From positions 2,581 through 66,580 of the forward strand of contig JAFSAI010000033.1 of assembly GCA_017441065.1 (NCBI GenBank): 64,000 nt of DNA, given 5' to 3'. The stretch comes from Bacilli bacterium (GTDB lineage: Bacteria; Bacillota_I; Bacilli_A; RF39; UBA660). Below are positions 8,304 through 51,508 of this stretch, one piece after another (the stretch's first letter is position 1; every line of letters begins with the position of its first letter). Made by a program: the position numbers and the translations under genes. The notes beneath the pieces are model-generated. The model ran no database searches. It worked only from the letters and a program-made list of their open reading frames with translations, and was not told the origin of the DNA.

Positions 8304-9560
8304 TTAATTTATTAGGAATGGATCTGTTTCTGTTCCTGTTCCACCTGTTATATGTATTGTTGATTCTAGATAGAAGACTGGCTTAACATAAGTTCCTTCA
8401 CGCAACGAACCTTCTTTGTAATAACTAGCAGGTCCTACACCGCCTAAAGTAACTACACCTATAATCCAAGAAGAAAATACTTTACCACTAGTGTAAAGCG
8501 GAGTATTTAATTCAAAATAAACTCCACCATTTACATAGGAACTAAAGTCCATTAATAGTTCGTCTACTCTAGGTGTTGTTAACACCCAACTGCCATCACA
8601 TGAACTAAAACAATTGGCTCCGCTTAAATAATAGTAATCGTGTATATACATTACTCCAACTTTGGCATTTACACTATTGGAAAAAGAATTCTCTAAAGCA
8701 TATATTTCATCTGGAGTAACATTTGCTGAATTACGATTTGAAATTTCACCATATTTCCAAATTGTATTAGAAACTTTATTATACCAAACACTACTTGTGT
8801 TCATATAATCATAATTAGAACTATTTACAAAAAGATTACTATATCCACCGCCGCTTATACCATTTAGCCCTTTAAAAATATCACTATCAGCCCACAAAGC
8901 TTTTTCTTCGGTTTTGTGCCATGCGTACGCAGTATTATTTATAGGTTCCCTTTTGATTAATTTCAATTGTCCACTTGAATTCACACCTAATATTCGATAC
9001 ATATACTTATCTGTATTGTTTGTGCACGTCGACTTATTATTAGTTCCAAAACACACATAGTTATTTACTATATCATTATTGTTACTATTACCATGATATC
9101 TATACATTTCACCTTCCATATTCGTAGTGTTTAAACCTGATGTTGGATTTCTTAGTAAACATTCAGATGCTGTTTCATCTTCATTACACCACTTAGGTAT
9201 ACTAAAATACAAATAACAATAGCTTGTATTTCCTGTATCTACTGTTGCTATATTATTTGTGCTATCATAACTAAGTACTCCATCTAACTTATTTCCATTT
9301 ATATCTATACATCCTGACATAGACTCATTATATGTATATCCACTTGTTGGCCACGTACTAGTTGTATCTTCTTTATATGTTCCGTCTTCTTGTTCTAACA
9401 TTATCGCAAACATATTTGAATTATTTATATTTAAATTTACTTCATCTAAATTTGTATTTTTATTACCATATGATTTATACATCAAAAACAATGTACAGCT
9501 TTCTATTATCACTAACACTAGTATTACTATCACACATATTTTTTTGTTAACAACTTGCAT
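8304..9560 (-). CDS. Surface-anchored protein, family member B. N-term MQVVNKK + TM, C-term ITGGTGTETDPFLIN.
   Basis: ORF track. Its first 120 codons or so are about 93% identical at the DNA level to the ORF at 20506-21645. Variable centre. Conserved blocks YICFGT, YMYRIIG and KIGLMYIHDYYY. Conserved C-terminal motif. Confidence 0.8.
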   Translation of the reverse strand: MQVVNKKICVIVILVLVIIESCTLFLMYKSYGNKNTNLDEVNLNINNSNMFAIMLEQEDGTYKEDTTSTWPTSGYTYNESMSGCIDINGNKLDGVLSYDSTNNIATVDTGNTSYCYLYFSIPKWCNEDETASECLLRNPTSGLNTTNMEGEMYRYHGNSNNNDIVNNYVCFGTNNKSTCTNNTDKYMYRILGVNSSGQLKLIKREPINNTAYAWHKTEEKALWADSDIFKGLNGISGGGYSNLFVNSSNYDYMNTSSVWYNKVSNTIWKYGEISNRNSANVTPDEIYALENSFSNSVNAKVGVMYIHDYYYLSGANCFSSCDGSWVLTTPRVDELLMDFSSYVNGGVYFELNTPLYTSGKVFSSWIIGVVTLGGVGPASYYKEGSLREGTYVKPVFYLESTIHITGGTGTETDPFLIN

Positions 9561-9584
9561 AATCTTTCTTCCTTATCTATTTTA

Positions 9585-9625
9585 TAAGGTAAGTATATAT
9601 TACCCCCCCCGAAGTCAAATTTTTG
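9585..9625 (-). promoter_or_regulatory. Sigma-A-type promoter with a homopolymeric G8 tract (C8 on plus, 9603-9610) inside the -35/-10 spacer. Candidate phase-variation switch.
   Basis: Minus strand reads TTGACT-TCGGGGGGGGTAATA-TATACT, then a 5' UTR with AAGGAAGAAAG SD, then ATG at 9560. Spacer is 15 nt with G8. The same promoter occurs upstream of two paralogues with different tract lengths. Confidence 0.75.
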
Positions 9626-9858
9626 AGAAAATTTTGTTGAGAAAATCAAAAACTCTACTTACCTGTAGAGTTTGTTCACACAATTTGTTTTATTTCAATA
9701 TATTATTATAGGTGATTATATTTATGCCTTTCAAAAACAATCCAACTATATTTATTTTATTTGCAATTGGTTTAGCTATACTTATTTGCTATCAATTACT
9801 TATAACTTTCATTTTACCATTTAGATACAATATTTTTATATTAACCGTCGAAATCATA

Positions 9859-20505: not shown

Positions 20506-21645
20506 TTAATTTATAATATATGGATCAGTTGATGTTCCGGTTCCACCTGTTATTTTTACATCAGATTTCAAATAGAATACTGGACGAACCAAACGAGCGC
20601 TGTCCAAATAATTAAGTGTGGGAATTCCATCACTCGATGCCAAAGTCCATCCGCGAAAACTACTAGAACCACCTAAACGACTCATTAACCACTCTAGAAC
20701 ATTTGTAAGTGGAACATTATTGGATAAATGTATCCAAGCAGTTTTTGCATTACTAGGATTTTCTGGCGATCCTCCGCTAGCATAGGCGTAGTAATAATCG
20801 TGTATATACATCAAACCTATTTTTGCACTTATGGTATTCGCCCAACTATCTTCAATTGCATATATTGTTGGGCCATCATAACCACCATTACTTGTTGCAT
20901 CCCCATACTTCCACGTTGTTGTTGCTATTTTACTTTCCCATCCTGTCGGAACATATGTATTATTTAATAAGTAATCATTTCCGTTTAATGCTATATATAT
21001 TAAACTATTTGGCCATATTACATCTGTTGTATCGTCACTCCACCATGCTACTGATGTATTTAAGATTTCTTTCTTTATTAGTTTCATTTGCCCCTCTTCA
21101 GCAATTCCTATTATTCTATACATATATGTAGCTGTATTATTTGTACAATCCAACTTATTGTTTGTTCCAAAACATATATGATTATCTACATTGTCAGTTC
21201 CTTGATATCTATACATCCCTGCTTCTATTGTAGTGTTTAATCCACTAGATGGATTCTGCAAAAGGTATTCACTAGCATTAGGCCTACTAAAATACAAATA
21301 GCAATAACTAGTATTTCCTGTATCTACTGTAGCTATATTATTGGTACTATCATAGCTAAGTACACCATCTAACTTATTTCCATTTATATCTATACACCCT
21401 GACATAGAATCATTATATGTATATCCACTTGTTGGCCATGTACTCGTTGTATCTTCTTTATATGTTCCGTCTTCTTGCTCTAACATTATTGCAAACATAT
21501 TTGTATTATTTATATTTAGATTTACTTCATCTAATGTATTATTCTTATTACCATATGATTTGTACATTAGAAACAATGTACAACTTTCTATTATCACTAA
21601 CACTAATATTACTATCACACACATTTTTTTGTTAACAACTTGCAT
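20506..21645 (-). CDS. Surface-anchored protein, family member C. C-term ITGGTGTSTDPYIIN.
   Basis: ORF track. N-terminal 120 aa nearly identical to member B. Divergent centre. Conserved C-terminus. Confidence 0.8.
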   Translation of the reverse strand: MQVVNKKMCVIVILVLVIIESCTLFLMYKSYGNKNNTLDEVNLNINNTNMFAIMLEQEDGTYKEDTTSTWPTSGYTYNDSMSGCIDINGNKLDGVLSYDSTNNIATVDTGNTSYCYLYFSRPNASEYLLQNPSSGLNTTIEAGMYRYQGTDNVDNHICFGTNNKLDCTNNTATYMYRIIGIAEEGQMKLIKKEILNTSVAWWSDDTTDVIWPNSLIYIALNGNDYLLNNTYVPTGWESKIATTTWKYGDATSNGGYDGPTIYAIEDSWANTISAKIGLMYIHDYYYAYASGGSPENPSNAKTAWIHLSNNVPLTNVLEWLMSRLGGSSSFRGWTLASSDGIPTLNYLDSARLVRPVFYLKSDVKITGGTGTSTDPYIIN

Positions 21646-21659
21646 ATTCTTTCTTCCTT

Positions 21660-21712
21660 ATCTATTTTATAAGGTAAGTATATATTACCCCCCCCCGAAG
21701 TCAAATTTTTTG
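21660..21712 (-). promoter_or_regulatory. Paralogous promoter with a G9 tract (C9 on plus, 21688-21696) in the spacer
   Basis: TTGACT (plus 21699-21704 as AGTCAA), a 16-nt spacer containing G9, then TATACT (plus 21677-21682). Flanks identical to the 9585-9625 promoter. Confidence 0.75.
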
Positions 21713-21826: not shown

Positions 21827-21895
21827 GGAAGCGTGAATTTCACGTCGCCTGTTTAATTAGATGACGTTATTCTAATACTAGAATGACGTTTTTTA
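21827..21895 (+). ncRNA. Candidate cis-antisense small RNA, convergent with and overlapping the 3' end of the 34-aa peptide ORF
   Basis: Plus-strand promoter TTGTAT (21791-21796), 17-nt spacer, TATACT (21814-21819). Small hairpin CGTGAA-T-TTCACG. Intrinsic terminator ATTCTA-ATAC-TAGAAT + TGACGTTTTTTATTT (21868-21895) lying inside the peptide ORF's last codons. Confidence 0.35.
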
Positions 21896-21971
21896 TTTCT
21901 ATTACCAATACAATCAATAATAGCAATATTATTATTACTAATAAAAACTTGTTTAGAGTTTTTAATTTCAT
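21867..21971 (-). CDS. Small hydrophobic peptide, 34 aa (MKLKTLNKFLLVIIILLLLIVLVIEIKNVILVLE). Candidate type I toxin-like membrane peptide.
   Basis: Not in the ORF track because it is under 60 aa. Strong SD GAAGGAGGTGA 7 nt upstream of the ATG. Single TM helix with a charged tail. Extended -10 promoter (TTTACA-N17-TGaTTAAAT) about 90 nt upstream. Its own terminator lies at 21735-21760. Confidence 0.5.
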   Translation of the reverse strand: MKLKTLNKFLLVIIILLLLIVLVIEIKNVILVLE

Positions 21972-22109
21972 ACGCTCATCACCTCCTTCTCAGGACCAAT
22001 ACTACCTCCCCGTTAAGTTAGCTTTTAAGCGACGCCACATTCAACACTTCCATATTCATTTAATCACAATAGATATGTATTGTAAATTAATTTCGTATGT
22101 CATAAATCG

Positions 22110-22139
22110 ACAAAAAAATATCACTATAAAGTGATATTT
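22110..22139 (-). terminator. Rho-independent terminator after the P-loop ATPase gene
   Basis: Hairpin ATATCACT-ATAA-AGTGATAT flanked by A6 and T runs (bidirectional). Confidence 0.7.
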
Positions 22140-23168
22140 TTATATATGCAATTTTCTTTCTGGTACTATGAAACCAGTAAATATTGGATTTTTATTTATT
22201 TCAGTATCTATAAAATGTAATAAATATTGATCATATTCTGCTGGTGTTAATTCATCCATTTTTCTATATAACTCTCTTACAGCATGAGCCATATCAAACA
22301 TACTACCGTTAGTTTTTTCTATCATTGAAGCAATTGTTTCATCTTTAATTACCAATGAAATTGGCATTCTATATTTCATTTTTCCAGAGAAAATCATCTC
22401 TCTTAAATTCATTCTATCCATTAATTCTTTTACTACTTCAACATCCTTAGTGTAATCTACCATAACAAGATCATTATCTTCACTAAGTTCATTTTGTCTT
22501 TCTTGACTATATACTACTTTTTTATCAGAAATAGTTGCAAGTAATCCTACATATTGTGACAATACATTGTATATGTATTTTTGATAAGTTTGACTTGATG
22601 AACCAATAGAATCAAAATCATCTATAGCTAAAGTTATTGTTTTATAATCTAGTACATTGGTAGCTATACTCAAAAATTCTTCTAATAATATTTCAGGATG
22701 TTCTAATAATACTTTATCAATTCTTTCTGGTTTTTTATTATAATTACCAACCAAATATATTAAATCAACTTTTCTATAGATAACATCTACTCTACTTTCA
22801 AGTCCAACAAAACATTCCATATATTTTTGTGGATGATTTTGTTTTATGAATAATAACATCTTTTTAATAATTAAACATGTTTGGAATAATCTAATTAATT
22901 CAGAATCAGGAATTTGAACAAATTCACCATATCTAACTGTAGCATCAATTAATGCATGTTCTGGGTCATTATAACCATTTATGTATTCTTTAAGTACTAC
23001 TGATTTTCCACAAGCCGTATCTCCAACTAAGAATACTTTACTTTTCTTTTTACTCTTTATTTCATCTATTACCCTATTAACAGGCTCTAAGCTTATCTGC
23101 CTACATTTTTCGTCTGACATAATTGCCATAAATCTTCTCTCTTTTCTGTGAATAATATTATAATCCAC
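22140..23168 (-). CDS. P-loop NTPase of unknown function (AAA-like)
   Basis: Walker A VGDTACGKS and Walker B ITLAIDDFD. 342 aa with no recognisable family signature beyond the P-loop. Sits 19 nt downstream of the membrane protein gene. Confidence 0.6.
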   Translation of the reverse strand: MDYNIIHRKERRFMAIMSDEKCRQISLEPVNRVIDEIKSKKKSKVFLVGDTACGKSVVLKEYINGYNDPEHALIDATVRYGEFVQIPDSELIRLFQTCLIIKKMLLFIKQNHPQKYMECFVGLESRVDVIYRKVDLIYLVGNYNKKPERIDKVLLEHPEILLEEFLSIATNVLDYKTITLAIDDFDSIGSSSQTYQKYIYNVLSQYVGLLATISDKKVVYSQERQNELSEDNDLVMVDYTKDVEVVKELMDRMNLREMIFSGKMKYRMPISLVIKDETIASMIEKTNGSMFDMAHAVRELYRKMDELTPAEYDQYLLHFIDTEINKNPIFTGFIVPERKLHI

Positions 23169-23187
23169 AAAAATTAAATAGTAAATA

Positions 23188-23763
23188 TTATTTTAATAAA
23201 AATGAAAAATATTCAAATATAAATGGAGATATAAAATAAAGAATTATATTGGTTAAAAGGACAAATAATATAATATATAAACTATTTTTGAAATTAAATA
23301 TCAATTTATCAAATATTACTTCATCTTTTTTATATATAAACATTCCTATAATAAATCGGCCTATATTAATTGTTTTTTGAATAAAACAGATAATTAATAT
23401 AAAGGATATAAGTTTATTTATAAGTATAAATAAACTTGAATAAATTAAACCACTTATACCAAATGATACTAAAAAAATATTTATTAAAAATCCAATAGAT
23501 AAACTTTCATAAAATAAAAATAATATACTTAAAGGCACTCCTATAATAAAGAACGATAATACTAATAATAAAGACATGATTACTAAATATTTAATAATAA
23601 AATTATATCGGAAATTATTATAATTCTTTAAAGTATCAGCAATTTGAATTTGTGTTTCGGTACTCAAAAAATGATAATATATAAAACCACATGCTATACC
23701 AATTAGGACTACAATAAATATAAACATTAAATATTTTTTATTTTTCTTTAATATTTGCTGCAT
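23188..23763 (-). CDS. Polytopic membrane protein, possibly SpoIIM/DUF95-like
   Basis: 191 aa. Basic N-terminus followed by about 5 TM helices. Its size and topology resemble SpoIIM, but the assignment is not secure. Confidence 0.3.
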   Translation of the reverse strand: MQQILKKNKKYLMFIFIVVLIGIACGFIYYHFLSTETQIQIADTLKNYNNFRYNFIIKYLVIMSLLLVLSFFIIGVPLSILFLFYESLSIGFLINIFLVSFGISGLIYSSLFILINKLISFILIICFIQKTINIGRFIIGMFIYKKDEVIFDKLIFNFKNSLYIILFVLLTNIILYFISPFIFEYFSFLLK

Positions 23764-23853
23764 ATTCTTATCACCATTTAAGAATATGCAAAAACTCTTT
23801 TAAAAATTACTTAAATATGATATATTTTAGATATATTGAAGGTGGGATTTTTT

Positions 23854-23949
23854 ATGAATAAAAAAACTAGAAAAATTCTAGTATGGGTAATGCTATTCCT
23901 TATGGTTGCATCTTTCGTAGCAAGTATTGCAATATATGCACTAGCTTAA
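23854..23949 (+). CDS. Small hydrophobic peptide, 31 aa (MNKKTRKILVWVMLFLMVASFVASIAIYALA)
   Basis: SD AAGGTGGG 8 nt upstream of the ATG. Single TM. Its 3' end overlaps the pilD stop convergently by 9 nt. Confidence 0.4.
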   Translation: MNKKTRKILVWVMLFLMVASFVASIAIYALA

Positions 23950-24711
23950 TGAAAAGAAAACCAATAAATTAGTAAACTTTTCAATGAAAACAAACATTAT
24001 AATCATTGATGATATTAAAAATGGACCAAAAGGAAGTTCATTTTTTTTATTGAAATAAAGTGTTGCCATAGCATATGGTAATGCTAAAAATGCTGCAAAC
24101 ACAAGTGATATTAAACTAAGTCTAAATCCTATTCCAGGATATCCTAAAGTTAATCCGATTAAGAAACATAATTTAATATCTCCTCCACCAAGAGATTCTC
24201 TTTTATATATTTTATCGCCTATTATTTTTATCAAATACATAACTAAAAATAAAGCTATACCATAAAGAACAGAATAAATTGTATTTGTTAATCCTACTTC
24301 AAAATATCTTATTATAATTATTAAAATACTTCCTATTACTAATGGCGAATCTAATATAATCATATATTTAAAATCACTTACAAATATTATTAATGCCACA
24401 GATATTATTATTAAGTAAATTCCTAATTTTAAAGAAATATCAAAGTACAAATAACCTACTAAGAAAAGAATTCCTGTAGCAAGTTCCATTATTAAATGTT
24501 CTTTACTAATTTTTTTACCACAGTTACGACACTTACCTAATTGAATTATATAAGATACCAAAGGTATCAATTCATACCATTTTAATTCTTTTTTACAAGA
24601 ATCACATCTACTTCTTCCTGTAATTACATTTTCTTTTAAAGGTAATCTTGTTCCTATTACTAAATAGAAGGAGCCTAAAATGGCTCCTATAATAAACACA
24701 CAAACTCCCAT
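23941..24711 (-). CDS. pilD: Prepilin peptidase (A24 family; PilD/ComC)
   Basis: N-terminal tetra-Cys (CDSCKK...CRNCGKK) zinc motif. Polytopic. GGGDIKL and catalytic Asp-containing motifs typical of A24 peptidases. Confidence 0.85.
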   Translation of the reverse strand: MGVCVFIIGAILGSFYLVIGTRLPLKENVITGRSRCDSCKKELKWYELIPLVSYIIQLGKCRNCGKKISKEHLIMELATGILFLVGYLYFDISLKLGIYLIIISVALIIFVSDFKYMIILDSPLVIGSILIIIIRYFEVGLTNTIYSVLYGIALFLVMYLIKIIGDKIYKRESLGGGDIKLCFLIGLTLGYPGIGFRLSLISLVFAAFLALPYAMATLYFNKKNELPFGPFLISSMIIMFVFIEKFTNLLVFFSLS

Positions 24712-24724
24712 TTTTTTAATCCCC

Positions 24725-26299
24725 CTACATTACTTGTTCATACATTCCGAACATTGGAACAATAACAGCAATTATTATACCACCTACTACTATAGCTAAG
24801 AAACTAATAAGTATCGGTTCAATAAATGATTTTAAATTATTTACTACATTACGATGTAATCCTTGATAGTATTCACTAACCTTTTGCATCATATTATCAA
24901 GTTCACCAGTTGATTCACCAGTTACAATCATGAAATAGGCAACATCAGGTACTGCCCAGTGATCTTTGAATGCTTCGCTGATTTTTTCACCTTTAACTAT
25001 ATTATTAATTGTTCTATATAATATAGATTTATAAATTTCATTATTTGTAATTTTACTTAAAATATCAATACTTTCTGTAATAAATACGTTATTTCTTAAA
25101 AGAGATGCAAATGTTTTTGTAAATATGGCTAATTCATTATAAATGATAATGTCTTTTACAACAGGTATTTTCATCATCATTGTTTGCATACTTCTTCTAA
25201 ATGCTTTTACATTTTTATAAGCAACAATTAATACTATTACTGCTATTACTATTAGTAATAAGATTGTAAAGATATTGTTTTGTAAGAAGTGACTTAAATT
25301 AATTATGAATGCCGTAATACCATTTAATTCAATATTATTCTTTTCATATATTTCAACGAATTTTGGAATTATAAATACTAGGATAAATGCTACAACTGCA
25401 AAGGCAAAAATACTAATTATCAATGGATATGTCATTGCACTTTTCATTTGTTTCTTAGTTTCATCAACTTCAGTATAATAGTTAGCCATATCTTCTAGTG
25501 TTTCAATTAAAGTACCACTAGCTTCTGCAGCTTTAATCATATTAATAAGAAGCGGTGGGAACATATTTCCTTGTTTTTCTAAAGCAGATGAGAAAGACGC
25601 TCCTAATGTAAGTTCATAAGACATTGATTGGAATGCTCTGGCTTTACTTTTCTTACTAGCCATTTGTTTTGACAATATTTTAACTGCATCGTTTAAAGTG
25701 ATTCCAGCTTTTAAATATGTAGATAATTGAGTTAACCAGAATATTAATTCTTTAGTAGACATTTTTGGACTACCAAATGAAGATTCTTTAAATAAGAAAT
25801 TAATCATTGGGCTAGTTTTAATACTATATACTGTATAACCTTCATTTACTAAGAATGAATTTATATCTAATTTAGATAAACCATTCATAGTACCAGTAAT
25901 TATTTTTCCTTGTTTATCTCTAACTTTAAAATAATAAACATTAACTTCTTTACTACGAGTCGCTCCTGTAGTTTGTAAATCTTGTAATAATGCTTGATAT
26001 TCTTGTTCTAATTTTGCTAATGTTTTAGCACTATAATTATAAACTTTTTCTTTTTTCTTTTTATTATCGTAACCATCATCTTCATGAGGTCCTAAAGCTT
26101 CTTTAGTTCTTTTATATGCTTTATCTAATTTCCAACTAGTACTATTATATAAATATACAAACAAATCATAAGTACAAGCTTTTAATCCAATAAAAGCATA
26201 AGAAAAAATTGAAAATATTACTAAACAAATATTTTTTAAAAACTCTAAAAATAAAACATACCACACTTTTTTTTCGTTAGGTGTTGCAACATTATCCAT
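24725..26299 (-). CDS. pilC: Type II secretion / type IV pilus platform protein (GspF/PilC/ComGB family) with an extra N-terminal extension
   Basis: Two GspF-type repeats and 3 TM segments (about 400 aa C-terminal), preceded by an about 130-aa N-terminal region containing a TM. Adjacent to pilD. Confidence 0.8.
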   Translation of the reverse strand: MDNVATPNEKKVWYVLFLEFLKNICLVIFSIFSYAFIGLKACTYDLFVYLYNSTSWKLDKAYKRTKEALGPHEDDGYDNKKKKEKVYNYSAKTLAKLEQEYQALLQDLQTTGATRSKEVNVYYFKVRDKQGKIITGTMNGLSKLDINSFLVNEGYTVYSIKTSPMINFLFKESSFGSPKMSTKELIFWLTQLSTYLKAGITLNDAVKILSKQMASKKSKARAFQSMSYELTLGASFSSALEKQGNMFPPLLINMIKAAEASGTLIETLEDMANYYTEVDETKKQMKSAMTYPLIISIFAFAVVAFILVFIIPKFVEIYEKNNIELNGITAFIINLSHFLQNNIFTILLLIVIAVIVLIVAYKNVKAFRRSMQTMMMKIPVVKDIIIYNELAIFTKTFASLLRNNVFITESIDILSKITNNEIYKSILYRTINNIVKGEKISEAFKDHWAVPDVAYFMIVTGESTGELDNMMQKVSEYYQGLHRNVVNNLKSFIEPILISFLAIVVGGIIIAVIVPMFGMYEQVM

Positions 26300-26687: not shown

Positions 26688-27291
26688 GACCTTTTAATAT
26701 AAGACATTCATACAATAATTTTATTTTCTTTTTAAGTGGTACTTTTTTTATTAAATCCTTATTTTTGTTTAATAAATATTTATAATAATCTTCATTATTA
26801 CTTATACCATATTTTAATTCTTTTTTAGTTAACTTTTGTTTTTGTTTAATACATAAAAGTATTATATAGTAATGATTATTTTCATATATTGCTTGTTCAT
26901 CTACTATTTTATAACCAATTTCATTTATTTTTTTTCTTAGTTTATAGTAATCATTATTACTAGCTAAAACTAATTTGTTGGGAGTTTTTTCATTGTCTAG
27001 AATTTTTAAAATAGTACTAGTTCCCATACCTGCTATTACAGCAGTATCAAAATATACAGGAACATCTTTAAAACCATCACTTACATAAGTTTTGATATCT
27101 AAATTATATTTTTTAAAATTATTTCTGGCAACATTTAAAGCATTCTCTGATACATCACTTGCATAAACTTCTTTACACAAATTATTTTGTTTTAAATAAA
27201 TACTTAAATATCCATGGTCACAACCTACATCTAGCACAGTATCGTTTTCAGATATTTCTTTAGCTAAAACTTTAATTCGTTCACTATTCAT
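26671..27291 (-). CDS. trmK: tRNA (adenine22-N1)-methyltransferase TrmK (YqfN)
   Basis: SAM-MTase motif VLDVGCDHGYLSIYL. Conserved position immediately downstream of sigA, as in B. subtilis. Confidence 0.8.
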   Translation of the reverse strand: MNSERIKVLAKEISENDTVLDVGCDHGYLSIYLKQNNLCKEVYASDVSENALNVARNNFKKYNLDIKTYVSDGFKDVPVYFDTAVIAGMGTSTILKILDNEKTPNKLVLASNNDYYKLRKKINEIGYKIVDEQAIYENNHYYIILLCIKQKQKLTKKELKYGISNNEDYYKYLLNKNKDLIKKVPLKKKIKLLYECLILKGLIEKK

Positions 27292-28391
27292 TAATTATCT
27301 AAGAAATCTCTTAATTTTTTAGCTCTAGATGGATGACGTAATTTTCTTAATGCTTTAGCTTCAATTTGTCTGATTCTTTCTCTTGTTACATTAAATCTTT
27401 TTCCAACATCTTCTAATGTATGACAAGTTCCATCAGTAAGTCCAAAACGAAGTTCTAATACTTCTTGTTCTCTAGGTTGTAATGTTTGTAATACGTCTTT
27501 TATTTCTTCTTTTAATATTTCATTTTCTGTATATTCTTCTGGTGATAAACTACTTTCATCTTTTAGAAAATCTCCTAAATGTGAATCATCTTCTTCTCCA
27601 ATCGGAGTTTCTAAAGATACTGGTTCTTGACTAATTTTAATAACTTCTCTTACCTTATCAACAGAAATACCCATTTTCTTAGCAATTTCTTCATCAGAGG
27701 GTTCTCTATTTAATTCAAGAGTCATTTGTCTTTGAACTCTAACCATTTTATTGATTGTTTCAACCATATGAACTGGTACACGAATAGTTCTTGCTTGATC
27801 TGCTAAAGCTCTTGTTATTGCTTGTCTAATCCACCATGTAGCATATGTAGAAAATTTATAACCTTTATCATAATCAAATTTTTCTACTGCTTTCATAAGC
27901 CCAATATTTCCTTCTTGGATTAAATCTAAGAATAAAAGTCCACGACCTACATATCTTTTAGCAATACTTACAACTAAACGTAAATTACTTTCTGCTAAAA
28001 TTCTTTTAGCTTCTTCATCACCATCAGCAATACGAATACTAATATTCATTTCATCTTCACTTGATAAAAGACTAATTCTACCAATTTCTTTTAAATACAT
28101 TCTTACTGGATCGTTAATATTTACATCCTTAGTAATTTCAGCATCATCTAAAATTATTGGTTCTTCTTCTTGAATTTTAGTTGGATCTTCTCCTGAAGCT
28201 TCAGCATCTTCTTCAGTTACTACAGAAATTCCTGCATCTACAAATGAATTATATAATTCATCTAATGTATCACTATCAATTTCTAAACCTTTTAAAGCTG
28301 CTGCTAGTTCTTCAAAAGTAATATAGCCTTGTTCTTCACCTTTCTTAATTAAACTTTCTTTTCTTTCTTCAAATGTTTTAATTTCTACCAT
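27291..28391 (-). CDS. sigA: RNA polymerase principal sigma factor SigA (RpoD)
   Basis: Regions 1.2-4.2 present. Signatures [18 protein letters not shown] and [29 protein letters not shown]. Confidence 0.97.
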
Positions 28392-31726: not shown

Positions 31727-31790
31727 CTTAGGAAGAAAGATATGTGTGTTATCTTTCTGGTTTATTTTAACGTCTTCATTGACGATTATT
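31727..31790 (-). repeat. Conserved 3' UTR element, copy 3. Not attached to a family gene: it sits in the 3' UTR of the unrelated secreted-protein gene 31864-33267.
   Basis: TTAGGAAGAAAGATATGTGTGTTATCTTTC...TTATTTTAACGTCTTCATTGACGATTATT. Followed at 31698-31717 by a terminator hairpin GCTAGT-TACATAAA-ACTAGC + T6 (as read on the minus strand). Confidence 0.7.
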
Positions 31791-31863
31791 ATTTATAGGA
31801 ATATTTCTTTTGTTACTGCTTTTTTTTCATCAATTTGGATCATAATAATTAATCAAGGAAAGC

Positions 31864-35489: not shown

Positions 35490-36788
35490 GTGTTTAGAGA
35501 ATTTGATTACGATAATAAACCTATTGTAGATATTGTTAACGAAATGATTATAGATGCTGTTAAAAATGGTGGATCCGATATTCACTTCGATCCTACTGAA
35601 GATGAATTAATGGTTCGTATCAGAGTTGATGGTTCACTTTTAGAATATGCTAAAGTACCAGCAACTGTAAAAAAGAATTTAATTACTCGTATAAAAATCA
35701 TTTCAGGAATGAATATTACTGAAACAAGACTTCCACAAGATGGTGCTATCAAAGGTTTAATTGAAAATATGGATGTTGACCTTCGTGTATCTAGCTTACC
35801 TATTGTTGATGGTGAAAAAGTCGTTATCCGTATTTTGGATTATCGTATGAGTTTAAATGGACTTGAATCTATTGGACTTACAAAAGATAATTTTACAAAA
35901 ATAAATGAACTTATAAAAAAACCAAATGGTATTATAATGATTACTGGTGCTACTGGTTCTGGTAAATCTACTACTGTATACTCTATGTTACAAGTACTTA
36001 ATACTACTGATAGAAATATTATTACAGTTGAAGATCCAGTAGAAATGAAAATTGCTGGTATAAACCAAGTACAAGTTATGAGTGAAATCGGTCTTACATT
36101 CGGAAGTTCTTTAAGAAGTATCTTAAGACAAGACCCCGATATCATAATGATTGGGGAAATTCGTGACGACGAAACTGCTCGTATTGCTGTTAGAGCATCA
36201 ATTACTGGACACTTAGTATTATCTACTATCCACACTAATAACTCTCTTAATACAATTGAAAGACTTTTAGATATGGATGTAGAAAGATATTTACTTGGTA
36301 GTGCTTTATCTGGTATTATTTCTCAAAGACTTGTTAAGAAATTATGTCCAAAGTGTCGAAGTGCTAGACCTACTAATAATTATGAAAAGAATCTTTTTAA
36401 AAAAGTATTAAATATGGATGTTCAACAAATTTATACTCCAGTTGGTTGTCCAGAATGTATAAATGGTTATAAAGGTAGAATTGCTGTTCATGAAGTATTG
36501 GAAATTACTCAAGAAATTAGAGATGCTATCGTAGGTAACTTAAGAAAAGAAGATTTAAGAAGACTTGTTTATGGTAAAGATGGAAGTACCCTTCTTAAAG
36601 ATGGATTAATTAAAGTTATGGAAGGTTTTACTTCAATGGATGAAATCGTAAGAGTTATTGATGTAAATGATGACTTTGGAGAAGATGATCAAGAACTAAA
36701 AGATGCAATTATTGGAAAAACTAGTAAACAAACTAATAATCAAAATGTTGCTAATCCATTTATTAAACCAAATATTGAAACATTATAA
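35490..36788 (+). CDS. pilB: Type II secretion / type IV pilus assembly ATPase (GspE/PilB/ComGA family), short form without the N-terminal domains
   Basis: Walker A GATGSGKST. Asp box. Walker B DIIMIGEIRD. His box LVLSTIHTN. Tetracysteine CPKC...CPEC. GTG start with SD GGTGA. Confidence 0.9.
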   Translation: MFREFDYDNKPIVDIVNEMIIDAVKNGGSDIHFDPTEDELMVRIRVDGSLLEYAKVPATVKKNLITRIKIISGMNITETRLPQDGAIKGLIENMDVDLRVSSLPIVDGEKVVIRILDYRMSLNGLESIGLTKDNFTKINELIKKPNGIIMITGATGSGKSTTVYSMLQVLNTTDRNIITVEDPVEMKIAGINQVQVMSEIGLTFGSSLRSILRQDPDIIMIGEIRDDETARIAVRASITGHLVLSTIHTNNSLNTIERLLDMDVERYLLGSALSGIISQRLVKKLCPKCRSARPTNNYEKNLFKKVLNMDVQQIYTPVGCPECINGYKGRIAVHEVLEITQEIRDAIVGNLRKEDLRRLVYGKDGSTLLKDGLIKVMEGFTSMDEIVRVIDVNDDFGEDDQELKDAIIGKTSKQTNNQNVANPFIKPNIETL

Positions 36789-36856: not shown

Positions 36857-38146
36857 TTAACCAATTAAATAGGGTTCTGTTTGAGTACCTTTTCCTTCAG
36901 AAATTTTAATACTACTATTTAAATAGAAAGCTGGACGTATAGAAAGGGCATGCATTGTATACTGACCTGTAGAACTTATTTCTCCTGTTCCACTTATATA
37001 CCACGCATATTGAAGATTTCTCATTGTACCAGTTCCATATCTAGACATCGTCCACTCATAACCTACTGCCCAATCATCAGGTGGTGTATCATCATTATTA
37101 CTTAAGTGAATCCATCCCGTTTTTAATATACCATAATTTGAATTCGATATATAATTTAATGCTCTCTCTCCTAATGATAACGCATAATCACTAACATACA
37201 TTAATCCTATTTTTGAAGTAACATTTTTCCATTCCCCTATAGTGCTAGTTTTTGTATTTCTATTCATTTCATGTAAATATATATTTTGTGCAGCAACACC
37301 AGAGTAGTCTAGACCACTACTTTCATTTGTTAATGTATTTATTGCTACAAAATTCCAGTCAATTATTTTACTTAACCATAAGTCTTTTTGCATATATGAA
37401 TATGTTGTATTATTTAGGAAATAATTTCCGTTTATCCCATTGTATAATTCACTTGCTTCCCAATTTGTATCAACCCTATAAGCACTATGCCATGCATAAG
37501 CTGTATTTAATGCTTCTTTTTTGATTAATTTTAAATGGTATCCACCAACCGGATCCTGAAAAATTCCAATAATACGATACATATATAAGTCTGTATTATC
37601 TATACAAGTATCTTTATCTGTAGTTCCAAAACATATATAATTATCTGGATAAGTTCCAATATAACGATATCCATCATCTTCTAATGAACTATCCCAAATA
37701 TCACTTATAAATTTTAAATTACTACTTTCTTCTTTTATACATTCATCAATATTATTATATGTTTTACACAAATCATATAGATTAGTGGCTGGCATATCAA
37801 AATATAAGTAACAATATGAAGTGTATTCAGAATTAACTTCAGCTATATTTGTTTTAGGATCATACTTTAATGCTCCTGGTATCATTTCTCCATTAATATC
37901 AACACATCCAGAAATACTACTATTGTATTTGTAACCTTCTCCAGGCCATATGGCATTATCCGCTTCTTTATATGATCCATCATCTTGCTCTATCATTATG
38001 GCAAATATGCTATCTTGAATATTATCTAATTTAAATTTTTCCCATTGAACGTTTTCGTTACCGTATATAAAAGTCACAAAAAACAAAACTAGTAATAATA
38101 CTATAGCAACGCTTACTAAACCAATTGTTGTTTTATCTGCTTTCAT
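36857..38146 (-). CDS. Surface-anchored protein, family member D. C-term ISEGKGTQTEPYLIG. No poly-G promoter.
   Basis: N-terminal TM. Shares the blocks FAIMIEQDDGSYKE, YTSYCYLYFD, YICFGT, LYMYRIIG and KIGLMYVSDY, and the C-terminal motif, with members B and C. Confidence 0.75.
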   Translation of the reverse strand: MKADKTTIGLVSVAIVLLLVLFFVTFIYGNENVQWEKFKLDNIQDSIFAIMIEQDDGSYKEADNAIWPGEGYKYNSSISGCVDINGEMIPGALKYDPKTNIAEVNSEYTSYCYLYFDMPATNLYDLCKTYNNIDECIKEESSNLKFISDIWDSSLEDDGYRYIGTYPDNYICFGTTDKDTCIDNTDLYMYRIIGIFQDPVGGYHLKLIKKEALNTAYAWHSAYRVDTNWEASELYNGINGNYFLNNTTYSYMQKDLWLSKIIDWNFVAINTLTNESSGLDYSGVAAQNIYLHEMNRNTKTSTIGEWKNVTSKIGLMYVSDYALSLGERALNYISNSNYGILKTGWIHLSNNDDTPPDDWAVGYEWTMSRYGTGTMRNLQYAWYISGTGEISSTGQYTMHALSIRPAFYLNSSIKISEGKGTQTEPYLIG

Positions 38147-38236
38147 ATTTCAAGTCCATTTCTATTATATATAAATTATATAATACTTAGTAAAACTGAG
38201 TCAAGTTAAGAGACAAAAAAAGAAGTCTTTAGACCT

Positions 38237-39235
38237 CTAATTTTCTCCTTCTTCCAACATTTTAGTTATAAACAAACCATAACCTGTTAGGGGATTATCT
38301 ACAATAACATGAGTAACTACTCCTACTATCATATCATTTTGCATTATTGGTGAACCACTCATCCCTTGTACAACGCCACCAGTTTTTTTAATCAATTTTT
38401 CATCAGTTATTTCAAACGTAATATTTTTAGTATCACTTGTCTCATTAATATTAGTTATATTAATTTCAAATTCTTCTACTTTTTCTCCATCTAACACTGT
38501 GTAAATATAAGCTTTTCCTACTTTTATATTATCTTTATCGCCTACTTTTACAAGTTCCATATCATTTATGTTATAAGCGTATTTACCAAATATACCATGA
38601 TTAGTATTTTTATAAATACTTCCATATATAGTATTATAAAAATATTTTGCATTTTTACTTCCCGCATGTCCTATTTCAGACTTATCTATTGAGGTAATTG
38701 AATTTCTAAAAATACTTCCACTTTTTATTTCTACTATTTTACTACTATTCCCTTCAATTACTTCATGACCTAAAGCACCATATATTAATGTTCCCGGATC
38801 TATATAAGTAAGAGTTCCAATTCCTGTTATACTATCTTTAACATATAGTCCAGTCTTATAAATTCCATTTTCATTTATTAATTCAAGTGTTGTACGCTTT
38901 TCATCCTTACCTCTTTTATAAGTGATTTCAACACTTCCATCAGTTGTATGTTTTTCTATTTCTTTAGAGAGTTCACTTAAAGAATAAACTTCTACATCAT
39001 TTATCTTTTTGATATAATCGCCCACTTTTAACTTTGGATTTCCTTTATTATATTTTCCATCTATTTGATAAAATCCAACAATAAGCACTCCATCACATTC
39101 AATTTCTATGCCTAAAGTATTACCACCCCTATAAATATAGTCTGAATAAGCAAATACATTAAGTGGCATCAATAAAATACTTAAAAACAATATTAATTTT
39201 TTCATACATATCACCATCAATATTATTGTGCCCAC
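38237..39235 (-). CDS. spoIVB: SpoIVB peptidase (S55 family, PDZ + serine peptidase)
   Basis: Signal anchor. PDZ domain. Catalytic motif VVQGMSGSPIMQNDMIVGVVTHV typical of SpoIVB. Confidence 0.85.
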   Translation of the reverse strand: MGTIILMVICMKKLILFLSILLMPLNVFAYSDYIYRGGNTLGIEIECDGVLIVGFYQIDGKYNKGNPKLKVGDYIKKINDVEVYSLSELSKEIEKHTTDGSVEITYKRGKDEKRTTLELINENGIYKTGLYVKDSITGIGTLTYIDPGTLIYGALGHEVIEGNSSKIVEIKSGSIFRNSITSIDKSEIGHAGSKNAKYFYNTIYGSIYKNTNHGIFGKYAYNINDMELVKVGDKDNIKVGKAYIYTVLDGEKVEEFEINITNINETSDTKNITFEITDEKLIKKTGGVVQGMSGSPIMQNDMIVGVVTHVIVDNPLTGYGLFITKMLEEGEN

Positions 39236-39294: not shown

Positions 39295-40908
39295 TTAGTT
39301 AGTTGTATATCCAAGTTCTTCTAATACACAATTTGTATATGCTGTAGGTCCACCTAATACATAAATTTGACAAGCATCTACTAAATCATCTACTTCATCT
39401 GAAGTAATTGTTGTATCACCAACTTTACCTAAAATTTCATCTAATTTTTTATCCATTTCAGTTAATTTAGTATCAATATTTCCAGATACTTCTATTAATT
39501 TATCAAATACTGCTTTATTTTCAGATTTAATTAATTCATTAGTTGTTCCGAATTTTTCATTAATTGATTTTTCTAAATCAGATATTTTTGTTTCAACAGA
39601 ACTTACTGCTGCAGCTAAATCAGTATCAATATCTTTTACTGCTATTGAAAGTTCTGATACATCTTCGCTTAATGCATCAATCTTTCCATTTGTAATTGTT
39701 AATTCATCTTTAACTGTTTTTGCAATTGATTCTTTAACTTCATTTAAACTTCTATTCAATATTGCTAATTCGTCTTCTATTTTATCTCCTAAGCTTGTTT
39801 CAAGTTCACCTAAAGTTTTATTTAAACTAGTTTCTAAATTAGTTATTGCAGTATTTATTTCTGCAATGTTTGAATTAATTGTAGCAACTTCTGTAGTTAA
39901 TTTTGTAATCAAATTTGTTTGAACTGCATCAATAACTCCTGCTAAATTTCCTTGTACATTTAATAGAGCTGTTAAAACCATTCCAATATTTGTATTAATA
40001 GTTTCTACATCTTTTGTTATTTTAGCAGCTAAATTACCTTCAACAGTTGTCATAACTGCACTTAAGTTTCCTTGTACATTTAATAAATCAGCACGTAAAT
40101 TATCTATGTTTGTATTAATAGATTTTACATCTTCAGTAATTTTATTAGCTAAATTACTTTCTACTGCTATCATTACACCGCTTAAATTTGTTTGTACATT
40201 TAATAAATCTGTACGTAAAGCATCAATATTTGTATTAATTAATCCAGCTTCAGTTGAAATTTTTCCAGCCAAATTACTTTCTACATTTTGTAATGAATCA
40301 AATAAGTTTGTTTGTACATTTACTAATACAGTACTTAGATTTGCTTGAACATTACTTAAATTTTCATTTAATCTATCTTCTGTATTTTGAATTTCTTCAA
40401 TAACTTCATCTGTTTCACTATCCATTTTATTAGCTAAATTTTCTTGTACATTTTCAAGTGAGTCAAATAAATTTGTTTGTACATTAACTAAAGAATTATA
40501 TAAATTTTCTTGAGTATTAACTAAATTTGTATTTATATTATCATTTGCAGCATCTACTGCATTAATTATTTCTATTGTTTTTTCATTAACACTATTTGTT
40601 AAATTTTCGTAATTTTTATTTGTTGTTTCTTCAAAATTATTAATATTATTATTTAATTTATTATAATTTTTATTAGTATTATTTTCTAAATAAGTAATAC
40701 TTTCTGATACATTATTAAATTTATTATTAAGTTCATCTTTTACATTAGTAATTTTATCACTATTATTTGAAACTGCTGTATCAATATCATTTAATGCTCC
40801 AGCGCTTTTTCCAAATTCTCCAAATAATAGAACAATTCCGATGATTAATACTAAAACTAATATTATATCCATAACTATTTTTCTAGCATTTATTTCTTTC
40901 TTTGCCAT
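39295..40908 (-). CDS. Membrane-anchored coiled-coil protein with tandem 38-40 aa repeats (LLNVQxNLSxVMxxVExNLAxKITxDVxxINTNI)
   Basis: N-terminal TM. At least four imperfect repeats, which are also visible as 117-120 bp tandem DNA repeats. Cys-containing C-terminal tail. Confidence 0.6.
   Translation of the reverse strand: MAKKEINARKIVMDIILVLVLIIGIVLLFGEFGKSAGALNDIDTAVSNNSDKITNVKDELNNKFNNVSESITYLENNTNKNYNKLNNNINNFEETTNKNYENLTNSVNEKTIEIINAVDAANDNINTNLVNTQENLYNSLVNVQTNLFDSLENVQENLANKMDSETDEVIEEIQNTEDRLNENLSNVQANLSTVLVNVQTNLFDSLQNVESNLAGKISTEAGLINTNIDALRTDLLNVQTNLSGVMIAVESNLANKITEDVKSINTNIDNLRADLLNVQGNLSAVMTTVEGNLAAKITKDVETINTNIGMVLTALLNVQGNLAGVIDAVQTNLITKLTTEVATINSNIAEINTAITNLETSLNKTLGELETSLGDKIEDELAILNRSLNEVKESIAKTVKDELTITNGKIDALSEDVSELSIAVKDIDTDLAAAVSSVETKISDLEKSINEKFGTTNELIKSENKAVFDKLIEVSGNIDTKLTEMDKKLDEILGKVGDTTITSDEVDDLVDACQIYVLGGPTAYTNCVLEELGYTTN
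39880..40340 (-). repeat. Imperfect tandem repeats of about 117-120 bp inside the CDS 39295-40908
   Basis: Repeated unit ...TTGTACATTTAATAAATCxGxACGTAAAxxATCxATxTTTGTATTAATxG... recurs 3-4 times. Confidence 0.7.
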
Positions 40909-43644: not shown

Positions 43645-45378
43645 TTAACTTATTATATATGGGTCAGTTGATGTTCCGGTTCCGCTTGTAATTTTTATAG
43701 ATGATTCTAAATAAAAGAATACTCGAAACCAATTAGAAGAAGTAGTAAGACTATAACTTGCGATTGTTCCATAACTAGGGTCCATATAATATGCAAAAGT
43801 TGTACCATTTTTTACTATCATCCACTCTTTCATACCAGCACCAATACCCCGAAACATCCACACGTTTTTTAATGCACTGTTTGCACCAGGATTTCCTCCT
43901 ATATAAGCATATAAATAATCACTTGGATACCCTAATCCTATTTTCGCAGATGTGCTATTTCCCAAATTGATTTCAGCATCGTAGGAATCATCTCCAGAAT
44001 ACATATCAACAATCGAAAAAGCAATTTGACCATATTTCCAATTAACTAGTGCTATTTTACTATCCCATCCACTTGGTACATAGGTAGTATTTGTTAGAAA
44101 TGAACTTCCATTTATTGCTAGATATATCGAAGATGCAGACCATGCAATATCACTTCTTGAGGAGTGCCATTTTAAACCACTCATTTGTTTTTGTTTAATT
44201 AATTTTAACTTACCAGATGAATCAACACCAATTATTCGATACATATATACTTCTAGATTACTTGTACATGTTGATTTGTCTGTTGTTCCAAAACATATGT
44301 AATTATTATCAACTACATCACCAGTTCCTTGGTATCTATACATATCACCATATTCAGCTGTTGAGATATTAGCTATTTCTTTTAATTTACTACTTCCATA
44401 TTTACTTGACATACATGTTCCCATATTTGTATATGATGAACATAATGTGTATAAACTTGGTACTGGTTTGGCGATGCTTATAGCACTTGTTCTATGTCCT
44501 ATGTTTCCTGCTTTATCTTTAACATGAATATAATAATTACCTGTTGCTGTTACTGCTGTTGTACTTGTAAATGTTGTTCCACTTACTTCATCCCATATAC
44601 ATCCGCTTGTTGATGTACTACTTGTATTTACACATACATGTGTTACTCCACTTCCTGTTTCTGTTACTATTACATTTGCTGTTCCTGCTCCACTATCACT
44701 TGCACTTGTTATTACTGGTGATACGGTATCAAGGAACACACTGTCACTTACTACTGGTGATATGTTTTCTGCTGCATCTCTTATAAATGCATATCTTGTA
44801 TTACTTCCTTGTGTGCTTATTGTATAACTTGGTGTTACTGAATTACCTGTTGTGCTTACCCAATTACAACTACTTGAATTGTTTTCTGGATTTATACAAT
44901 AACTTGTTATGTCATTATCTGTCCATGATAGGTATGCTGTTGTATTTGTTGTATTTATATATTCTGGATTAGTACTTCCTCCTAGATAAAATGTAAATGT
45001 TTGTGGTGGCACTTTATCTAAATCAAAGTACAAATAACAGAATAATGTTTTATTACTACTAACTGTTATTTTATTATTGTTATATGATATTACATCACTT
45101 ACTACTTTTCCTTTATTATCTGTACAATTACTTCTTTCTTCATTAAAGTAATATTTTAATCCTATGGGATAGTATTCACTATCTGTATATTCCTCGTATT
45201 CTCCATTTTTATTCTCTACATACATTGAAAACATTTCTTTATTTACTTTATTTTCTTCTTTTATTTCTTTTATATCTTTATTACCATATGATTTGACTGA
45301 TAAATATGTAAACACACATTCTATTACTACTAATAAAGTTATCGTTATTATCCAAAGTTTTTTGTTAACAACTCTCAT
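43645..45378 (-). CDS. Surface-anchored protein, family member E, with an inserted Ser/Thr-rich module. C-term ITSGTGTSTDPYIIS.
   Basis: N-term MRVVNKK + TM. An about 200-aa S/T-rich insertion (VSPVITSASDSGAGTANVIVTETGSGVTHVCVNTSSTSTSG...). Conserved blocks YICFGT, VYMYRIIG and KIGLGYPSDYLYAY. Confidence 0.8.
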   Translation of the reverse strand: MRVVNKKLWIITITLLVVIECVFTYLSVKSYGNKDIKEIKEENKVNKEMFSMYVENKNGEYEEYTDSEYYPIGLKYYFNEERSNCTDNKGKVVSDVISYNNNKITVSSNKTLFCYLYFDLDKVPPQTFTFYLGGSTNPEYINTTNTTAYLSWTDNDITSYCINPENNSSSCNWVSTTGNSVTPSYTISTQGSNTRYAFIRDAAENISPVVSDSVFLDTVSPVITSASDSGAGTANVIVTETGSGVTHVCVNTSSTSTSGCIWDEVSGTTFTSTTAVTATGNYYIHVKDKAGNIGHRTSAISIAKPVPSLYTLCSSYTNMGTCMSSKYGSSKLKEIANISTAEYGDMYRYQGTGDVVDNNYICFGTTDKSTCTSNLEVYMYRIIGVDSSGKLKLIKQKQMSGLKWHSSRSDIAWSASSIYLAINGSSFLTNTTYVPSGWDSKIALVNWKYGQIAFSIVDMYSGDDSYDAEINLGNSTSAKIGLGYPSDYLYAYIGGNPGANSALKNVWMFRGIGAGMKEWMIVKNGTTFAYYMDPSYGTIASYSLTTSSNWFRVFFYLESSIKITSGTGTSTDPYIIS

Positions 45379-45394
45379 ATTATCTTACCCTTCT

Positions 45395-45445
45395 TTTATT
45401 TATAAGGTAAGTATATATTACCCCCCCCGAAGTCAAATTTTTTCA
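45395..45445 (-). promoter_or_regulatory. Paralogous promoter with a G8 tract (C8 on plus, 45421-45428) in the spacer
   Basis: TTGACT (plus 45431-45436), 15-nt spacer, TATACT (plus 45410-45415). Flanks identical to the other two copies. Confidence 0.75.
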
Positions 45446-45679
45446 AAAAAATTGTTGAAAAGATTATGGGCTAAAATCACAAAGTAAAAATAATGGCCAA
45501 GCCATTATTTTTGGAACAAAAGAAAACATGAACTGTTTGTTAGTTTTTGGAGGTATATTTCAAAGTGGATTTGTTAAATTAATAACTAAGTGTAAATGTA
45601 ACCAAATATTCTATATTTATAAAAAATCCCCTTCACTCATAAGATATGCGAAATATCCTAAAGTGAAAGGGCTAATTAA

Positions 45680-49573: not shown

Positions 49574-49662
49574 AATCTTACCTTTCGTAAAAATTATGGT
49601 CTTTTTTTTAGTTTTTTATTCAATAAAAAAACATACTATTTTCTAGTATGCTTTATCCCTTT

Positions 49663-50739: not shown

Positions 50740-50823
50740 TTTACTCCTCCTTATTTTATACTTTAAGTATAACTTAATAATTCCAAAAAATCTACATATA
50801 AAAATATCATTAAAAATGATATT

Positions 50824-51507: not shown

Positions 51508-51508
51508 T

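Follow-up and report, generated by a model that had tools for sequence, protein, structure and literature searches.

Poly-G runs in the promoter spacers of a predicted surface-protein gene family of uncultured gut Bacilli, a candidate set of phase-variable loci

Three paralogous genes in the 64-kb stretch of DNA analysed here (the window) are each preceded by a promoter-like block in which an uninterrupted run of G residues lies between the -35 and -10 hexamers. The question raised by this arrangement is whether slippage in the run could switch transcription of the downstream gene, as a sequence-only reading of the first copy (copy A) had proposed, or whether the run is a fixed element, a passenger of recombination, a mark of silent cassettes, or an artefact.

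The promoter blocks and genes of the window

Re-reading of copy A on the minus strand gave TTGACT, TC, G8, TAATA, and TATACT, in that order, in agreement with the G8 tract and 15-nt spacer originally described, and the same context is found in copy B with a G9 tract and in copy C with a G8 tract (Table 1). The block, AAAAATTTGACTTC-Gn-TAATATATACTTACCTTATAAA, is 44-45 nt long and shows no difference among copies A, B, and C, so that the description of an identical block of approximately 45 nt upstream of three paralogues, with tract lengths of 8, 9, and 8, also holds. Near-identity of the three copies runs past the block through the leader, the ATG, and the first codons. At the 26% G+C of the window, the expected number of G8 runs is 0.04, and they were found at three loci; besides the three tracts, there are no runs of six or more G or C residues elsewhere in the 64-kb window. 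The presence of the tracts in the blocks is thus confirmed, and is far from a chance occurrence.

Table 1. Coordinates of promoter blocks, terminators, and genes in the window
Feature	Position	Strand	Details
Copy A promoter block	9581..9624	-	-35 at 9613-9618; spacer 9598-9612 (15 nt); G8 at 9603-9610; -10 at 9592-9597; leader start
Copy B promoter block	21666..21710	-	-35 at 21699-21704; G9 at 21688-21696; 16-nt spacer; -10 at 21677-21682
Copy C promoter block	45399..45442	-	-35 at 45431-45436; G8 at 45421-45428; 15-nt spacer; -10 at 45410-45415
Intrinsic terminator 5' of copy A	9650..9673	-	Separates the unit from upstream genes
Intrinsic terminator 5' of copy C	45486..45512	-	
Copy A gene	8304..9560	-	418 aa; start codon at 9560; predicted N-terminal TM helix, beta domain, enlarged C-type-lectin-like domain, C-terminal GTGTxTDP motif
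Copy B gene	20506..21645	-	379 aa
Copy C gene	43645..45378	-	577 aa; extra inserted domains
Fourth family paralogue	36857..38146	-	429 aa; 33% identical to copy A; directly downstream of spoIVB
Fourth-paralogue promoter	38175..38204	-	TTGACT, non-repetitive 18-nt spacer, TATAAT; no G run; internal comparator
RpoD/SigA primary sigma factor	27291..28391	-	Regions 1.1 to 4; expected reader of the tract promoters
Solo copy of the ~65-nt block normally 3' of family genes	31730..31797	-	Exactly this site is occupied in another strain by a family gene with a G9 promoter

Judged by its sequence, the block is a sigma-A-type promoter with terminator insulation, of the form TTGACT-spacer-TATACT. The consensus sequences of sporulation sigma factors do not fit TTGACT/TATAAT, and the RpoD of the window is canonical, full-length, and above the NCBIfam curated cutoff. 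A conventional promoter scan, in which a spacer of 16-18 nt is required, called copy B promoter-like (G9, 16 nt, 10 of 12 hexamer matches) and left copies A and C uncalled. Alternative placements gave poor hexamers by inspection, both when the -35 was moved to produce a 17-nt spacer and when TAATAT or TATATA was taken as the -10. An RNA element at the tract loci was rejected, as Rfam was empty there and a single tRNA was the sole match in the window. An inverton was likewise rejected, as copies A, B, and C share no flanking inverted repeats: copy A has none, that of copy C is the terminator hairpin, and copy B has one weak, unshared AT-rich pair.

The leader of each copy contains an inverted repeat (9558-9593, 21643-21678, and 45376-45411, minus strand) that reads CCTTAT-N7-ATAAGG in copies A and B and CTTACCTT..AAGGGTAAG in copy C, and that overlaps the end of the -10, the expected transcription start, and the Shine-Dalgarno region. 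For copy A, that start would fall approximately 7 nt past TATACT, near 9584-9586. A hairpin sequestering the ribosome-binding site was considered and rejected: the fold (-5.9 to -7.4 kcal/mol, z of approximately -2.3 to -2.8) is obtained only with a start inside the -10, and leader RNA folded from the expected start is unstructured. Alternatively, the palindrome could be a DNA operator.

Terminators are also found on the downstream side of copy A (8235-8216), copy B (20442-20425), and copy C (43605-43586). For copies A and C, the -35 follows the upstream terminator at a distance of approximately 30-60 nt, and upstream of copy B an AT-rich hairpin with a T-run was recognized by eye only. Given this lack of space for a second promoter, each gene very probably has no promoter other than the one whose spacer contains the tract.

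The genes of copies B and C encode paralogues with 60% and 39% identity to copy A. The family product may reasonably, if provisionally, be regarded as a membrane-anchored, lectin-like, ligand-binding surface protein, where the term surface protein is based on a TM helix and a lectin-like ectodomain, both of them predicted. The best fold match of the ectodomain is a gut IgA peptidase, the N-terminal domain of which is an enlarged C-type-lectin-like domain that is dispensable for catalysis (PMC12237041). We infer that this N-terminal domain is the part of the peptidase matched by the family, from which the HExxH motif is absent. The N-termini of family members are signal-anchor-like, many have no Cys in the N-terminal segment, and no lipobox is conserved (in the window copies, the sequence IIESC does not qualify as one). 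Within the three window genes, there are no in-frame tandem coding repeats.

Occurrence in related genomes, spacer length, and variation among strains

Related loci were collected by a protein-based scan, with one genome per species and not conditioned on the promoter, which returned 236 relatives, of which 79 loci were kept, from approximately 25 species-level MAGs, mostly of rabbit gut and also of goat and human origin; loci from other samples were obtained through exact-protein contig look-ups. Runs of six or more G residues number 69 in the 513 kb of related loci, and 68 of the 69 occupy the same promoter position, on the coding strand and upstream of family genes. Outright matches to TTGAnn-linker-Gn-(4-8 nt)-TATAAT/TATACT account for 62, six further runs belong to the same element, in a form that either has a CGC linker or is truncated at the start of a contig, and one G6 is unrelated. 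Run lengths were G8 (41 instances), G9 (17), G7 (3), and G6 (1), and every tract with a readable downstream ORF precedes a product that matches the family profile. Comparison of tract lengths in related genomes, which had been proposed as a check, therefore favours the slippage proposal both in this placement and in the single-G differences among strains described below.

The tract element was found in 12 species-level MAGs beyond the lineage of the window, and one MAG, Lapin-001 bin81, carries at least 12 tract copies (L034, L056, L063, L070, L074, L078, L085, L092). The proteins across these species are just 27-45% identical, and the genomes have approximately 26% G+C. Across species, the constant parts are TTGAC, the uninterrupted G run, and TATAAT, and the linker (CC, TC, CTC, ATC, CGC, CCC) and the rest of the leader vary. 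Because the G run is kept while linker and leader vary and the proteins have diverged to this extent, it has been retained against a strong AT bias. Conservation, measured as information content, increases abruptly at the base preceding the -35 and spans TTGAC, the -10, and approximately 25 nt of leader, with a weak CAACA and T-run approximately 20 nt upstream that is the tail of upstream terminators. A scan of metagenome contigs for AATTTGACTTC-N(0-30)-TATACTTACC gave 12 chance matches, none of them with a G run.

The spacers of the tract promoters are shorter than those of ordinary promoters in the same DNA. Tract-less sites of the form TTGAC[AT]-N-TATAAT have a 17-nt spacer in 12 of 20 cases and an 18-nt spacer in three, with spacers of 12, 15, 16, 19, and 20 nt found once each, whereas tract-bearing sites of the same pattern have 14 nt (2 sites), 15 nt (21), or 16 nt (20). 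Among 61 distinct tract contexts, three have 14 nt, 30 have 15 nt, 26 have 16 nt, two are odd 11-nt variants, and none has 17 nt or more. For instance, the nearby hrcA promoter is a perfect TTGACA-17-TATAAT, and tract-less paralogues of the family itself (L051, L087, L077, L044, L073, L072, L018, L016/L048) have a 17-nt spacer. In the window, the fourth paralogue has a promoter homologous to those with tracts (cTTGACTc...gTATTATATAAT), with a spacer of 18 nt. The suggestion that gain of 1-3 G residues would carry the spacer to its optimum of 16-18 nt fits the data insofar as the tract promoters fall short of ordinary 17-nt promoters; the upper part of that range, 17-18 nt as the 'on' state, sits less well with observed spacers of 14-16 nt only. 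Because 17-18 nt was never observed, the 'on' state is more likely to be 16 nt than 17-18 nt, or else 'on' alleles are never in the majority.

Tract length shifts with the number of other bases in the spacer. Tracts of G9 or longer occur in 0 of 15 spacers with eight non-G bases, 14 of 41 with seven, and 2 of 3 with six (8- versus 7-base classes, Fisher p = 0.012, with sample size overstated, as loci within a species are not phylogenetically independent). It is therefore the total spacing that appears to be bounded and not the length of the run, which argues for promoter geometry over a fixed-length G-box. Because G8-to-G9 steps are common in the 7-base class, the absence of 17 nt needs explaining: either a perfect-consensus 17-nt promoter is selected against, or 'on' alleles never dominate the population. 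Either way, tract length is predicted to have a phenotypic consequence.

Variation among strains was assessed by comparing assembled consensus sequences. In pairs at least 99.5% identical (approximately 71 kb aligned, with 23 tract comparisons), there are only two indels, and each is one G in a tract. At locus B, the tract is G9 in the window and in L096 and G8 in L095, the sole indel in 16.1 kb of that contig; at the locus encoding P0057, L126 has G8 and L125, L127, and L128 have G9, the sole difference in 3,071 nt and in mid-contig. As a control, six A/T runs of eight or more are unchanged over the first 60.6 kb compared. The tract is thus the only indel-polymorphic site among near-identical strains, in line with the expectation, voiced from the three window copies alone, that a slippage-prone tract should differ in length. 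Weaker cases are L110, with G9 at a contig end versus G8 in L106 and L108; locus A, where strain L121, 97-98% identical, has G9 versus G8; and L103, with G9 versus G8 in L106 in the same upstream context, where the cassettes differ.

Tract length is the same in 21 of the 23 orthologous comparisons, and the range of lengths is narrow, 7-9. A G8 was read at locus C in 4 of 4 cases, and a G9 at the locus encoding P0098 in 6 of 6. Because most comparisons agree, consensus states appear fairly stable, and switching is unlikely to be so fast or so unselected that the consensus drifts freely. A substitution next to the tract was also seen: at 2960-2963 of L002, orthologous to approximately 9600 of the window, TACTA replaces TAATA, a C for A two positions past the tract, which is one of 5 substitutions in 7.3 kb of a strain that is 99.93% identical.

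Contingency loci, fixed elements, and cassettes

We consider it likely that the family is a set of independently switching contingency loci controlled through the promoter spacer, and the family is probably a real and functional one of this kind. A different account, that the run is a fixed cis-element, either the site of a family-specific regulator or a rigid structural spacer in which differences of +/-1 are tolerated noise, is unlikely. It would accommodate the exclusive use of G in the run, its constant placement on the coding strand, and the small spread of its lengths, as well as spacers that never reach 17 nt and a decayed promoter (TAGACT-TC-G9-TATAAT) that keeps a pure G9 in 6 of 6 samples; the approximately 25 nt of conserved leader after the -10, with a palindrome over the expected start, also hints at extra regulation. 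However, co-variation of tract length with the other spacer bases, such that total spacing is held, is not what a fixed element predicts, and descent of the block from a common ancestor accounts for the run being always on one strand. We know of no regulator that recognises plain G8. Furthermore, a fixed site would allow interruptions without a change in length (for example, GGGGAGGGG), whereas all tract-length runs found are uninterrupted, in a search that needed six or more G residues and could miss interrupted relics.

It is quite improbable that the run is a non-functional passenger in a 5' block homogenised by gene conversion, with lengths that reflect neutral slippage. Frequent recombination is indeed indicated by mosaic genes and by the same protein in two upstream contexts, and the block with approximately 360 nt of coding sequence is far more alike among paralogues than the remainder of the gene. 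Conversion within a genome, however, cannot account for a pure G run in 12 other species with diverged flanks, and the passenger account explains neither the sharp bound on total spacer length nor the systematic shortfall of 1-3 nt relative to tract-less promoters.

The preferred reading, switching through the spacer, has also to be set beside signs of recombination among the genes. After the stop codon of family genes lies a block of approximately 65 nt (AATCGTCAATGAAGACGTTAAAATAAAC..GAAAGATAACACACATATCTTTCTTCCT) with two small inverted repeats. In L112, an insertion of 1.9 kb is found at 31785/31786 of the window, between flanks that are 97% identical, and carries a 186-aa gene together with a G9-promoter family gene; by its sequence, this is a presence/absence polymorphism of a cassette. 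At locus A, window 8324-9198 was compared with L121 1563-2446, where flanks are 97-98% identical and the promoter and first ~360 nt are conserved; the 3' two-thirds of the gene is replaced in L121 (protein P0016, 48% identical). P0016 and P0009 are each found behind two upstream contexts (L121 versus L123, and L103 versus L104), through either recombination at the shared block or assembly chimeras. In the chimeras L100-L102 and L125-L128 (P0054, P0057), the tract promoter and the N-terminal ~120 aa are fused to DUF285/BspA-type repeats, with 93-94% identity to copy A over the first 29%.

From such exchanges, it could be argued that the genes are silent cassettes, kept off by a short spacer, and that variation comes mainly from recombination at the 5' and 3' blocks and not from slippage. 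The swap of the 3' two-thirds at locus A between strains with near-identical flanks, the cassette present or absent at 31785/31786 together with the solo 3' block, and the DUF285/BspA C-terminal chimeras would fit this account, which we nonetheless regard as very improbable: each cassette is complete, from promoter through ribosome-binding site and start codon to an intact ORF, unlike classical silent cassettes, and approximately 43% are already at a 16-nt spacer acceptable to the conventional scan. Moreover, recombination and slippage are not exclusive.

A sequencing or assembly artefact, from poly-G calls in two-colour chemistry or homopolymer miscalls, would suit the many contigs that break at or inside the block and the L110 variant at a contig end, but can practically be dismissed, as the same tract occurs at the same position in mid-contig in independent projects and assemblers (ENA MEGAHIT-style k141, JGI, and NCBI MAGs), with no other indels in 71 kb and six A/T runs of eight or more unchanged in the first 60.6 kb.

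Contigs that start at, inside, or just after the block or tract are L003, L025, L026, L032, L033, L037, L041, L047, L049, and L065, and further L105, L107-L111, L113, L114, and L122, from several projects. Such starts could reflect a dispersed repeat, tract heterogeneity, or poor sequencing after poly-G. Variant promoters were also seen. In those of P0054 and P0002, the base that follows the tract is G instead of T, so that G9 is directly succeeded by AATA and the run is longer, with the spacer still at 15 nt. In L115-L120 (P0098), the -35 is degraded to TAGACT and TATAAT abuts the G9, giving an 11-nt spacer that is identical in six samples; this promoter may be dead or -35-independent, with the pure tract kept.

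Proposed mechanism, known systems, and host context

In the mechanism that we favour, each unit would be insulated and monocistronic, and would consist of a terminator, a sigma-A promoter, a short leader, the gene, the conserved 3' block, and a terminator. Within the -35/-10 spacer of the only promoter, the half nearer the -35 holds an uninterrupted run of G7-G9, in which slipped-strand mispairing during replication would add or remove a single G, moving the spacer back and forth between 14, 15, and 16 nt and transiently to 17 nt. Each change would rotate and displace the -35 box relative to the -10 box, and in this way alter initiation by the RpoD holoenzyme. Because the tract promoters are without an extended -10 (TG) motif, a strong dependence on -35 contact and on spacing is expected. 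The most likely assignment is that 16 nt would be on or partly on and 15 or 14 nt would be off or low; the combination of near-perfect hexamers with a 17-nt spacer would either be under counter-selection or never reach a majority. If a dozen or more loci in one genome switch independently, the cells of a population would differ combinatorially in which of these predicted membrane-anchored, lectin-like proteins they display at the surface. We infer where transcription starts, how tract length affects expression, how fast and how reversibly the loci switch, and that the products are exposed at the surface.

The promoter tracts of Neisseria porA, opc, and fetA, approximately 9-14 residues long, span the spacing optimum, whereas the tracts here are shorter (7-9), with spacers of 14-16 nt only, and the range of 7-9 is also narrower than that of many Neisseria or Campylobacter loci. 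According to passages in PMC3899988 and PMC2791445, a poly-G or poly-C run lies between the -35 and -10 of porA, opc, and fetA of Neisseria meningitidis, and gain or loss of one nucleotide alters transcript level. The likeness consists in a homopolymeric G/C run in the sigma-70-type spacer of a gene for a surface protein (predicted to be such here), and both the repeat in the -35/-10 spacer and a length difference between strains are found in the present family. Unlike the Neisseria examples, which are single genes of a Gram-negative pathogen, the tracts here belong to a multigene family of uncultured Bacilli that carry sporulation genes.

The closest arrangement by gene family is that of vlp in Mycoplasma hyorhinis, where, in the portions of PMC10502178 (citing Citti and Wise 1995) and PMC3899988 that concern it, a poly-A run is described in the promoter of every vlp gene, each gene having its own highly conserved 5' region and switching independently, with combinatorial expression as the result. 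Here also, paralogues each have their own conserved homopolymer promoter (the window has three, and one MAG at least 12), and in GTDB terms M. hyorhinis is classed in the Bacilli as well. The vlp run is poly-A and not poly-G, and the Vlp products are lipoproteins with periodic coding repeats and size variation, whereas the present family has no conserved lipobox, no tandem repeats, and a lectin-like ectodomain fold.

Dinucleotide repeats in the promoter spacers of Mycoplasma mycoides Vmm and Haemophilus influenzae hifA/hifB vary in number, which alters the -35/-10 spacing and switches transcription, as set out in sections of PMC10502178 and PMC3899988. These differ from the present case in being TA repeats that change in 2-bp steps at single loci, and the hif promoter is bidirectional. 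In the Bordetella fim promoters, the C run, approximately 13-15 long, separates the site of an activator (BvgA) from the -10, whereas no activator site is evident here. Several paralogous surface-structure genes of Bordetella pertussis have poly-C promoter runs and switch independently, as a passage of PMC3899988 describes. The architecture was at first likened to that of porA and opc and to that of Bordetella fim; the former likeness stands, as a homopolymer in the spacer, and the latter is a loose one. Stochastic on/off control of surface features is also the outcome of the invertons of Clostridioides difficile and Bacteroides (PMC9286219, PMC11868660), to which the outcome proposed here is comparable, but theirs arises by site-specific inversion between inverted repeats, none of which is conserved at the tract loci.

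In gut commensals, studies of phase variation have dealt mainly with invertible promoters and methylation, and repeat-driven promoter switches are textbook matter for Gram-negative pathogens and mycoplasmas. No report was found in the open-access literature of a repeat-driven promoter switch in sporulating Firmicutes or in these uncultured Bacilli orders, which is weak evidence. The interest of the family lies in its lineage, its size and conservation, its link with cassette mosaicism, and the fact that public metagenomic reads allow a direct test; the mechanism itself is classical. A more ambitious proposal, to be held tentatively, is that of a 'phasome', in which a dozen or more independent poly-G promoters per genome, in at least 13 species of uncultured gut Bacilli, among them the sporulation-gene-carrying lineage of the window, would act together with cassette exchange through the 5' and 3' blocks to give combined phase and antigenic variation of the lectin-like surface proteins. 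Spore-forming Firmicutes would then have their first such system, a counterpart among commensals of Mycoplasma vlp and Neisseria opa/porA. If spacer switching holds, a small-genome commensal lineage would generate surface heterogeneity, plausibly against secretory IgA or phage, and existing metagenomic reads could reveal the mechanism. The conserved promoter is a simple search pattern for more members, and the presence of conserved 5' and 3' blocks points to a cassette system that is amenable to study.

The window is chromosomal and includes dnaJ-dnaK-grpE-hrcA, lon, tig, greA, dnaG, thrS, and further housekeeping genes. It also contains sporulation homologues, in an ftsA-ftsZ-spoIIGA-sigE-sigG cluster and in spoIVB, so that the endospore-forming Firmicute supposed from the sequence is right at the gene level; sigG, sigE, spoIIGA, and spoIVB (48797-52297 and 38237-39235, minus strand) are each the best NCBIfam match, all under the curated cutoffs, so that the sporulation programme may be divergent and possibly reduced. 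Family homologues carry no label beyond 'MAG: Bacilli bacterium', which, together with the low G+C and the divergence of the sporulation genes, is consistent with the uncultured Bacilli orders of PMC10868615, in which sporulating and non-sporulating, walled and wall-less species are combined.

Type IV pilus/T2SS-like genes (21867-26299, minus strand) adjoin copy B on its upstream side. They include a prepilin peptidase (23941-24711) and a GspF/PilC-like gene (24725-26299), with ORFs for an unassigned ATPase-like protein (22140-23168), a polytopic membrane protein (23188-23763), and a 34-aa hydrophobic peptide (21867-21971), and a GspE/PilB-like ATPase is encoded at 35490-36788 on the plus strand. 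A distant family member, P0102, has a prepilin N-methylation domain, and the window copies are without the G-F/T-L-x-E prepilin motif. Elsewhere in the window, a 120-nt tandem repeat (39943-40326, approximately 2.5-2.9 copies, 74-77% matches) lies inside an ORF at 39295-40908 (minus strand), the product of which is a 537-aa coiled-coil or apolipoprotein-like protein.
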